Below, one piece after another: positions 58,505 through 61,500 of a stretch of DNA of 64,000 nt (its first letter is position 1; each line of letters opens with the position of its first letter). This stretch comes from Rhodothermales bacterium (GTDB taxonomy: Bacteria; Bacteroidota; Rhodothermia; Rhodothermales; JANQRZ01): contig JBBSMX010000002.1 in assembly GCA_038232935.1 (NCBI GenBank), forward strand, positions 9,231-73,230, given 5' to 3'. Made by a program: the position numbers and the translations under genes. Below the pieces are notes generated by a model. It had not been told where the DNA came from and made no database searches. It saw only the letters and a program-made list of their open reading frames with translations.

Positions 58505-58597
58505 CGCGCCTCACGCTCGGGCCTGGGAGGCCAGGCGGGTGGGCGTGGCTTCGAGAGGAAACCCCTCCGCACCGCGCCCGCCGTCAGCCACGCTCGA

Positions 58598-61500
58598 TCA
58601 CACGGTCGATGCACGCGCGCACGTAGGCCGCCGTCTCCACGGCCGTGGGATCGTGGAGCAACCCCCCCCCTGCTTCACCCGAAGCTCCTCGAACCCACCT
58701 TGGGCCAGCTTGCTCCAGTCCGTGTGCAGGTTGTCCTTCATCTCATGTCGGATGAGGACGACCTCCCCAGCGTAGGGCTTCAGCTCGTACTCGTACATCA
58801 TGCGCTTGTACTCTTCGTCGACGTATTCCGAACGCAGGCGCTCGGGGATCGGCCGGTCCAAGGCGGCGAGAGCGCGGCTGTACTGCAACGGCAGGTTCGC
58901 TTTCCGCACCGCTTTGCTCACCCTGAAGCCGACGCTCCTCTTCGCCCATCGCCATGCGTGCGACAGCCCTTCCTCCCGAAGCCGAGCGAGCTGTTCGTCC
59001 CGCCGCTTGCGGCGTTTCTTCTCGGTCCGGTCGATGTCGCCGTTGATGATGCAGACGAGGCCTACTTCCGCACCCTGGGCGCGTAGTTGGCGCGCTATTT
59101 CGAGGGTGACCCGCCCCCCGATACACGCAGTCGCCATGAGATACGGCCCCTCCGGCTGAAACGCCCGCATCTCTTCGATGTACGCCGCCGCCATCTCCTC
59201 GACGCTTCGCAGCGTGAGCGGTCGCCCATCGTGGCCCGGCCCCTGGATGCCGTAGACCGGCTGGTCCTCCCCCAGGTGCTTCGCCAGCCGCTCGTAGCGG
59301 AGGATCTGGTTGGTGCCGTTGTGCGGGCAGAAGAGGACCGGGCGCGTGCCGTGGGGTTGAATAGGGACGAGGTACGACCACGCCTGCTCCGTCGCCGATC
59401 CGCTTCCGTCGCCGCTGTCGTCGAGTTGAACGGCGAGCATCGCGATCGTAGGAGACGTGAAGAGCACCGCGAGGGGCAGCTTCTTCCCGAACGTGCTCTC
59501 AATCCGCGCGAAGAGCTTGATGGCGAGGATCGAGTGGCCGCCGAGGTCGAAGAAGTTGCCGTGGATGCCGACCTGGTCGAGGTTGAGGAGGTCGCTCCAT
59601 ATCTCTGTGAGCGCCTGTTCGGCCTCGGTGCAAGGCGCTACGAACGCGGCCTCCGGCTCCTTCCGCGCCTCTTCGGGAGCGGGCAGCGCCTTGCGGTCCA
59701 CTTTGCCGTTCGGGGTGAGCGGCAACGTCTCCAGCGCCACGAGGGCCGTGGGCACCATGTAACCGGGGAGCCGCTCCACCAGAAGGTGCCGGACGTCGTC
59801 GATGAGTTGCTCCGTGGTGTTCCACGCCGGCACAGTCGGCTGCATCCGGCCCGACTCCTCACGCGGCGCGCCAGCCGTAGGCCGCGTGGCGTACAGCTTG
59901 AACAGCGGGGTCTCGGTGAGCTGCTCGTCCTGCTCCACCGTCAGCTCGAACCCGTGACGGCCGAGCATCTGCCGGATCTTCTCCAGCGCGCCGTCGGTGT
60001 CCTGCACCTCCATCGCCACCTGGCGGATCTTCGGCCAGTCGGCCTCGTCGATCCCTTCGAGCACGTCCAGCTCGCTCTTCTCGACATCGACCTTCAGCAG
60101 GTCTATCCGCTCGATCCCTTCGGCGCGCATCACCTCCGAGACCGTCCGCAGACGGCACGCGATCTGCTCGCTGGTGAGCCGCTGGTCCAGCAGCTCGTCG
60201 AGCTGTGCGCTGGAGATGGCTCCGTCCCCTCCGCTGGACTCACCGCTGAGGAAGGACTTGATGGCGGCGCGCTCGTCGACCCCGTCGGCGTAGCGGCCGG
60301 AGACGAGGGAGACGTGGGGGTAATAGGTGAAGACCGCGCTGCCGGTCTCGCGGCTGAGCCCACACTCGAACGGTTTCACGCTCGCGCCGTAGAGCGCCGC
60401 GTTGATGCGCAGCGCCTCGAAGGTGGCAGGGATCGGCTCGAAGGCGTAGACCCTCGCGTTGCGAACGGACCGGCTCACGAGGAGCGAGAACAGGCCGATG
60501 TTGGCTCCCACGTCGAACACGCATGCCCCGTCGTCGAGAGTAATGCCGTGCTGGAGGTAGGACTGCTCCTCGAAGATCTCTTTGAAGATGTACTCCGTCT
60601 CGCTCTGGTTCTGGTGGGCGATGTGCATGCCGTTGGGCAACTCGAAGCGTGTCCGACCCGCGAGCAGGTTCTCACGCTCCAGCCGAAGCTGCTGCCGCAC
60701 TGGCGCGGCCTCCTCCCGGTCCGGGACCAGATAGGCCGCCAGCCGCTGCTGGCCCGGCGCGTCTTCGCGCGCCATCACGACGGCCTCTTCCACCCCGGCG
60801 TGCTGCCGCAGCACGGCCTCGATCTCGCCCAGCTCGATGCGATAGCCGCGCAGCTTCACCTGATCGTCGGCGCGCCCGAGAAACTCGATGGTGCCGTCGG
60901 GCAGGGTGCGCCCGAGGTCGCCGGTCCGGTAGAGCCGGGCGTGCTCGCCCTCGTCGAATGGGTCGGCGACGAAGCGCTCGGCCGTCAGCTCGGGGCGACC
61001 GAGGTAGCCACGCGCGATGCCGTCTCCCCCGATGTAGAGTTCCCCGACCGTGCCCATCGGCACCGGCTGTTGCTGCTCGTTGAGGAGGTACACCCGCGCA
61101 TTCGGGATCGGCCGCCCGATGGGCACCGTCGCGACCCGCTCGCGGTCCTCCGGCCACGGCCGGGCGTCGTAGACCGTCGCCCAGACCGTGGCTTCGGTCG
61201 GGCCGTACTCGTTGAAGAGCGGCGTCTCGGGGAGGCGTTCGGCGTGGCGTTCCACGAGGTCCGGTGGGCACGCCTCGCCCGCGACGATGGCGGTGCGCAG
61301 CGAGGCCAGACTACGGGGCTCGATCTCGTCGAGGAGGAGCCGGTAGAGCGACGGGACGGCGAGGAGGTGCGAGACCTCGTACTGCGTGATGAGGGCGGCG
61401 AGCGGCTTCGGCTCGGCCGACACGTCGGGGGCGGGCACGACGAGGGTGCCGCCCTGCGCCAGCGTCCAGAACAGCCCCGCCACCGAGCTGTCGAACGAGA

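Follow-up and report, generated by a model that had tools for sequence, protein, structure and literature searches.

Transcriptional slippage is known to rescue genes that carry frameshifts in the poly(A) tracts of endosymbionts. We describe a frameshift in a 64,000-nt stretch of DNA from a Rhodothermales bacterium (hereafter the window), in which a run of nine G lies close to the 3' end of an NRPS gene. Both cases involve a frameshift at a run of at least nine nucleotides for which some of the transcripts might, in theory, regain the correct frame, but the rescue in endosymbionts is documented for A/T runs and nothing points to it at the G run of the window. The locus also resembles the homopolymer-tract frameshifts of other bacteria, and the assembly errors that look like them: a single base has changed in a run of at least 9 nt, the downstream frame is preserved and the same genome presents a second case. 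The only distinction of the NRPS gene is that the last helix of a 1600-residue enzyme is lost. A third comparison is offered by the poly-G phase-variable contingency genes of Campylobacter, Neisseria and Haemophilus, as they are surveyed in PMC8808543. These genes likewise possess an intragenic G tract of 9-10 nt that sets the reading frame. In contrast, the NRPS tract is not conserved in the orthologue, is located at the extreme 3' end of the gene and belongs to an environmental, high-G+C, metagenome-type genome. The change at the NRPS tract is best described as an ordinary homopolymer slip, whether real or technical, which calls for no new mechanism.

The enzyme itself can be compared to the solved type I thioesterases (TEs) of AB3403, a C-A-T-TE protein of Acinetobacter baumannii (4ZXH/4ZXI), of 7CRN and of EntF (3TEJ). 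These share with the window the TE fold and its terminal position after the carrier domain, and their C-terminal helix follows the His loop as it does in the intact form of the window's TE. In addition, the Cys nucleophile of AB3403 (GGWCFGG) matches that of the window. The TEs of the window and of its orthologue differ from these enzymes: Thr replaces the first Gly of the elbow, the Asp column holds Asn and the His column holds Gly or Asn.

The NRPS gene occupies positions 58598..63457 on the minus strand and its open reading frame translates into 1619 aa with matches to PF00668, PF00501, PF05050, PF13193, PF00550 and PF00975. Based on Pfam, its architecture is C-A[FkbM MT]-T-TE, with a Condensation-like domain, an adenylation domain bearing an inserted FkbM-type methyltransferase, a carrier and a thioesterase. 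The thioesterase (PF00975, E 7.5e-18, residues 1375-1497) is located C-terminally of the carrier PF00550. Directly upstream of the NRPS lies the 3' part of a TauD-family dioxygenase gene (63507..63998, minus strand; PF02668, E 5.5e-22). The same arrangement is found in the orthologous contig L001, where the gene order is NRPS A-T-C, TauD, NRPS C-A-MT-T-TE and PPTase. No domain of the NRPS is better conserved relative to this orthologue than the TE, with 84% identity and a dN/dS of 0.18. Across the alignment of the two genes (window 58598-63457, L001 5939-10825), the A, MT, T and TE parts present 70-84% identity with dN/dS of 0.18-0.32, and the condensation-like N-terminal domain presents 48% identity with a dN/dS of 0.47.

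The preliminary description of this DNA reported a run of 9 G in the NRPS gene, and direct reading of the sequence confirmed its presence. The plus strand reads CCCCCCCCC at 58662-58670, a 9-nt run of C between A and T, and the coding minus strand carries the corresponding G9 tract (G000:C2:67892-67900 in the contig numbering of the source genome, G000). The tract, which lies 20 codons ahead of the annotated stop of the 1619-aa protein, begins with the third base of the Gln1596 codon (CAG), runs through Gly1597 and Gly1598 and ends at the second base of the Gly1599 codon. As annotated, the C-terminus of the protein reads RVKQGGGCSTIPRPWRRRPTCARASTV followed by the stop codon, and its tail CSTIPRPWRRRPTCARASTV with the stop spans 58598..58660 on the minus strand. 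When one extra base is added to the tract, the frame reads LLHDPTAVETAAYVRACIDRVIERG down to a stop at 58584-58586, such that the alternative tail with its stop spans 58584..58661 on the same strand and encodes the TE loop and the last alpha-helix. This alternative frame is the -1 frame relative to the annotated one, and the two frames can be told apart by the peptides LLHDPTAVETAAYVR in the alternative frame and CSTIPRPWR in the annotated frame. The annotated tail is rich in Arg and Pro. Its third-position G+C amounts to 15/20 and that of the alternative tail to 22/25; a recount reproduced exactly these two values from the preliminary description.

We then compared both tails to the relatives of the gene. 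When the TE region was compared with 5.8 billion proteins, a single close relative emerged, P0003 (1628 aa), which comes from a Logan assembly (contig L001); the remaining matches presented at most 39% identity. This orthologue is encoded in one open frame throughout its 1628 aa, without any shift. It ends in GGFEELRVEQNGGLLHDPTAVETAAFVRACIDRVIERG, and its C-terminus up to the stop codon reads EQNGGLLHDPTAVETAAFVRACIDRVIERG. The alternative tail of the window is identical to that of the orthologue at 24/25 residues and both share the same stop, whereas the annotated tail CSTIPRPWRRRPTCARASTV has no counterpart in any homologue compared. At the DNA level, the window reads CAG GGG GGG GG-TTG where L001 reads CAG AAC GGA GGG TTG, indicating that the window is exactly one nucleotide shorter within the run. 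The stop codon is identical in the two sequences and the DNA similarity collapses past it. Only four substitutions separate the tails in the alternative frame: three are synonymous and one is a conservative Tyr/Phe change, which corresponds to a dN/dS of about 0.1.

These nearly silent substitutions, together with the TE being the best conserved domain, identify the alternative tail as the evolved C-terminus. The comparison of the sequences thus indicates that the NRPS evolved to end with the alternative-frame tail and that the final 20 residues of the annotation are read out of frame. The earlier proposal that the last codons of the gene are frameshifted at the G run is borne out by the one-nucleotide shortfall relative to L001, and the proposal that the alternative tail is the genuine C-terminus is supported by the match to the orthologue, the shared stop, purifying selection and the predicted terminal helix. 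Of the two tract lengths that had been suggested to restore the frame, 10 G fits the length of the orthologue and 7 G does not. Because the tail has accumulated three synonymous changes and one conservative change and the TE is strongly conserved, any lesion must be recent. No independent copy of the tract was found by an exact search of metagenome and genome contigs with its 23-nt flanks, and a protein-guided search of metagenome contigs returned nothing beyond relatives of at most 38% identity. The NRPS gene was absent from 40 related genomes, and the two genomes of the same genus were without match.

The structural role of the tail was assessed on the orthologue. Its TE was aligned with 16 metagenomic homologues (17 sequences) and the alignment was used for AlphaFold2, which produced a model with a pLDDT of 87.8 and a pTM of 0.84. 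In this model, residues 252-270 (TAVETAAFVRACIDRVIER) form a terminal helix with a pLDDT of 94-97. When the window's annotated sequence was modeled in the same way, its last 22 residues reached a pLDDT of only 42-60 and were predicted to be disordered. The shift is therefore predicted to remove an integral helix and to leave an Arg/Pro-rich, disordered tail in its place. The top Foldseek matches of the orthologue model are solved type I thioesterases, namely 7CRN, EntF 3TEJ, AB3403 4ZXH and Pks13, with E values of 1e-11 to 1e-14. Pfam, the AlphaFold2 model of the orthologue and Foldseek all support an alpha/beta-hydrolase TE fold, which follows the carrier domain. In the 67- and 17-sequence alignments, the alternative tail coincides with the EPxV..LA..L helix that is conserved across the family; this helix, which closes the TE fold, is encoded in the alternative frame only and is missing from the annotated protein.

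It had also been proposed that the alternative tail supplies the catalytic His of the enzyme, and this part of the preliminary description did not hold. In the 67- and 17-sequence alignments, the His column of the canonical PG-x-H motif coincides with the Gly codons of the run: it is Gly in the window, within the G run, and Asn/Gly in the orthologue, such that neither TE presents a His in the PG-x-H loop. The His of the alternative tail, in the motif LLHDP, is found in a variable column five positions downstream of the PG-x-H column, just ahead of a conserved (E/D)P with which the last helix begins. In P0006, which comes next among the relatives that share this architecture, the column is occupied by Ser, and the homologue L044 possesses a His in this column in addition to its canonical His. 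The variability of the column and its separation from the PG-x-H column rule out the tail His as the catalytic His.

The other members of the triad were examined with the same approach. The nucleophile elbow TACIGG (59114..59131, minus strand) was located by alignment with solved TEs and homologues, and its Cys1445 (59123-59125) aligns with the nucleophile Ser of the solved TEs; the first Gly of the elbow G-x-S/C-x-G is replaced by Thr. A Cys nucleophile is also present in AB3403/4ZXH and in many homologues. In type I TEs, the catalytic Asp follows strand beta6; the column that holds it is occupied by Asn1472 in the window (59042..59044, minus strand; alignment of LLALLD with LVCIIN) and by D, N or E in homologues, so that no catalytic Asp is found at this position in the window. 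An Asp is located two residues after Asn1472 in the alignment. Because the PG-x-H column is Gly/Asn and the Asp column is Asn1472, the restored tail does not restore the triad. Judging from these alignments, the canonical triad is incomplete even in the intact orthologue and the TE clade is non-canonical.

Another His, in the motif LH(T/A)DW, is common to the window, P0003 and P0006 and lies about 25 residues upstream of Gln1596-Gly1599 (58661-58672). This residue could be a relocated base of the TE. Many related terminal thioesterases, among them the metagenome homologues L011, L012, L019, L023, L025, L010, L017 and L020, also present a PG-x-H column without His, with motifs such as PGHQQN, PGRGIT, PGGEAD and AVYPKG. 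Among metagenome thioesterase homologues, the column without His is often paired with a Cys nucleophile. Cys thioesterases without this His seem to be widespread.

Could the nine-G allele be the normal one? A first possibility is that the full-length TE is produced from this allele through slippage during transcription or through a -1 shift of the ribosome on G GGG GGG. Formally, this sequence conforms to the X XXY YYZ heptamer, and the alternative frame is indeed the -1 frame. Frameshifted genes can be restored when the polymerase slips on a long homopolymer, although such rescue is known mainly for A/T runs and efficient slippage on G runs is not established. The orthologue L001 is in frame without any run, however, which indicates that the shift is not conserved. 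We searched for a stimulatory RNA structure downstream of the G run and found none: a 91-nt segment that covers the run and the sequence behind it folds at z = +1.41, with 187/200 shuffles at least as good, and L001 does not conserve the 7-bp hairpin that follows the run. Nothing suggests programmed recoding at the NRPS tract, and we consider this to be the least probable of the explanations evaluated.

Alternatively, the G tract could be maintained as a switch for phase variation by slipped-strand mispairing, which would control both the NRPS release domain and a secretin. In the secretin gene, which belongs to the same genome, the frame changes within a Gly-rich linker, at a G9 run (G000:C9:44523-44531) that is one G short, and the piece downstream of the run matches PF00263. 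The two coding G9 tracts would thus both be at their OFF length in non-essential functions related to the surface or to secretion, in a genome where long G/C runs are otherwise strongly avoided. Several observations oppose this explanation. The NRPS tract is not conserved, since its only orthologue presents the interrupted sequence AAC GGA GGG; for this reason, the suggestion of the preliminary description that the TE is phase-variable was not supported. The gene is absent from the same-genus genomes. The secretin orthologue of the same genus (G002; locus L050), which is 93% identical, is a single open frame of 566 codons with mixed GGC/GGG/AGC codons at the position of the tract. Furthermore, a gene of 4.9 kb whose switch lies only 25 codons ahead of its stop would be oddly designed, and mutS and mutL were both found in a genome that showed no other hallmark of contingency loci. 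We therefore regard a contingency locus as improbable. An extended version, in which the two tracts act as contingency switches whose length variation controls a secondary-metabolite assembly line and a secretion/pilus channel, with residual expression provided by slippage of the polymerase or the ribosome on G GGG GGG, appears marginally more doubtful still.

We next considered how the tract fits into the genome, which is 4.37 Mb long with 67.5% G+C. It contains 14 G/C runs of exactly 9 nt and 30 of at least 9 nt, and an order-0 model predicts about 218 runs of length 9. Long G/C runs are strongly avoided in the genome and the G9 tract of the NRPS is not unique. The frame is intact at about ten further coding G/C runs, which measure 9-13 nt and include lengths of 10, 11 and 13. 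A scan of GC3 phase took in all 78 G/C runs of at least 8 nt; many of its apparent phase switches proved on inspection to be ordinary gene junctions (for example C12:49815, C34:18771, C41:7320 and C64:15345). The assembly is composed of 253 contigs with an N50 of 25 kb. Some contig ends (C155:1-82, C159:1-95 and C85:18389-18499) present alternating poly-C/poly-G blocks of up to 35 nt, which look like assembled read junk of two-colour chemistry. Overall, the assembly looks like it was built from two-colour short-read data.

Frame disruption was estimated by tblastn with 392 ORFs from 352 kb of a same-genus genome, and the reciprocal test was also run. Two of about 280 matched reference ORFs were split in the source genome with a coding signature on both halves, and the reciprocal count was 0. 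These two genes, at G000:C190 (about 5925) and G000:C60 (about 22290), are continuous ORFs in the same-genus genome and neither is split at a long homopolymer. Frame disruption thus concerns about 1% of the sampled genes, some of them away from homopolymers, a rate that rules out an unpolished long-read assembly. The gene of an M43 metallopeptidase in G000:C4, near HEVGHWLGLYHTFQG, also changes frame (...CDTPPD...NYMDYS...) after a CT-rich stretch that is not a homopolymer. The indels of the M43 peptidase, C190 and C60 are located away from homopolymers and therefore indicate that real indels occur in the lineage. No support was found for a mutator lineage, as both mutS and mutL have long open frames.

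The main alternative is that the organism possesses 10 G and an intact TE, that the consensus lost one G and that the 1619-aa model is a casualty of annotation. Library PCR stutter, low coverage at the G-rich tract or the path choice of the assembler are proposed as sources of such a miscount. The tail is perfectly preserved in a TE under strong purifying selection, and the contig-end poly-G/poly-C junk points to a light clean-up of the reads. The secretin tract is short by the same single base, which places an indel of the same type in another conserved gene, as an assembly indel would predict; a G9 tract short by one G in both genes would also look like a systematic technical undercount. Homopolymer lengths are error-prone in sequencing and software, and they are described as a recognised source of sequencing and bioinformatic artefacts in PMC8808543, with PCR stutter (PMC11878640) and long-read homopolymer error (PMC9262707) among the sources of wrong lengths. 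On the other hand, the in-frame coding runs of 10, 11 and 13 should have been harder to call than the NRPS tract. Frame disruption is rare overall and part of it lies off homopolymers. Short-read consensus is moreover usually right about the length of 9-10-mers. A technical miscount is a serious possibility that we nevertheless place below even odds.

We lean slightly toward a real and recent deletion of one G by replication slippage (G10 to G9), to which we attribute a probability of about one half. This explanation is favored because frame disruption is limited to about 1% and is partly off homopolymers, because the assembly looks like a short-read one with usually reliable consensus at such lengths, because the frame is kept across about ten further coding runs of 9-13 nt, and because a second conserved gene, the secretin, is one G short with an intact same-genus orthologue. 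The one-G shortfall of the secretin is equally expected for real slippage as for an undercount. Against a real deletion, the undecayed tail is explained equally well by an artefact. Under the scenario of a real deletion, the tract would have contracted very recently in the sampled population, replacing the final 25 residues with 20 unrelated ones and removing the C-terminal helix, which would probably destabilize or inactivate the release domain of the NRPS. The lesion would be unselected and reversible, and would represent a young frameshift at a mutational hot spot rather than an evolved device, with the secretin gene carrying the same kind of lesion.

These results have direct value for annotation: the 1619-aa model carries a spurious tail of 20 residues and the evolved enzyme ends in a conserved helix. 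For any expression or modeling of this NRPS, the deposited frame is one base off and an intact orthologue exists. Should the deletion be real, the population that was sampled probably has a silent or impaired gene cluster. Restoring the tail brings back no catalytic His, and the lack of the canonical His and Asp in this clade of thioesterases, its intact members included, constitutes the more interesting biochemical question.
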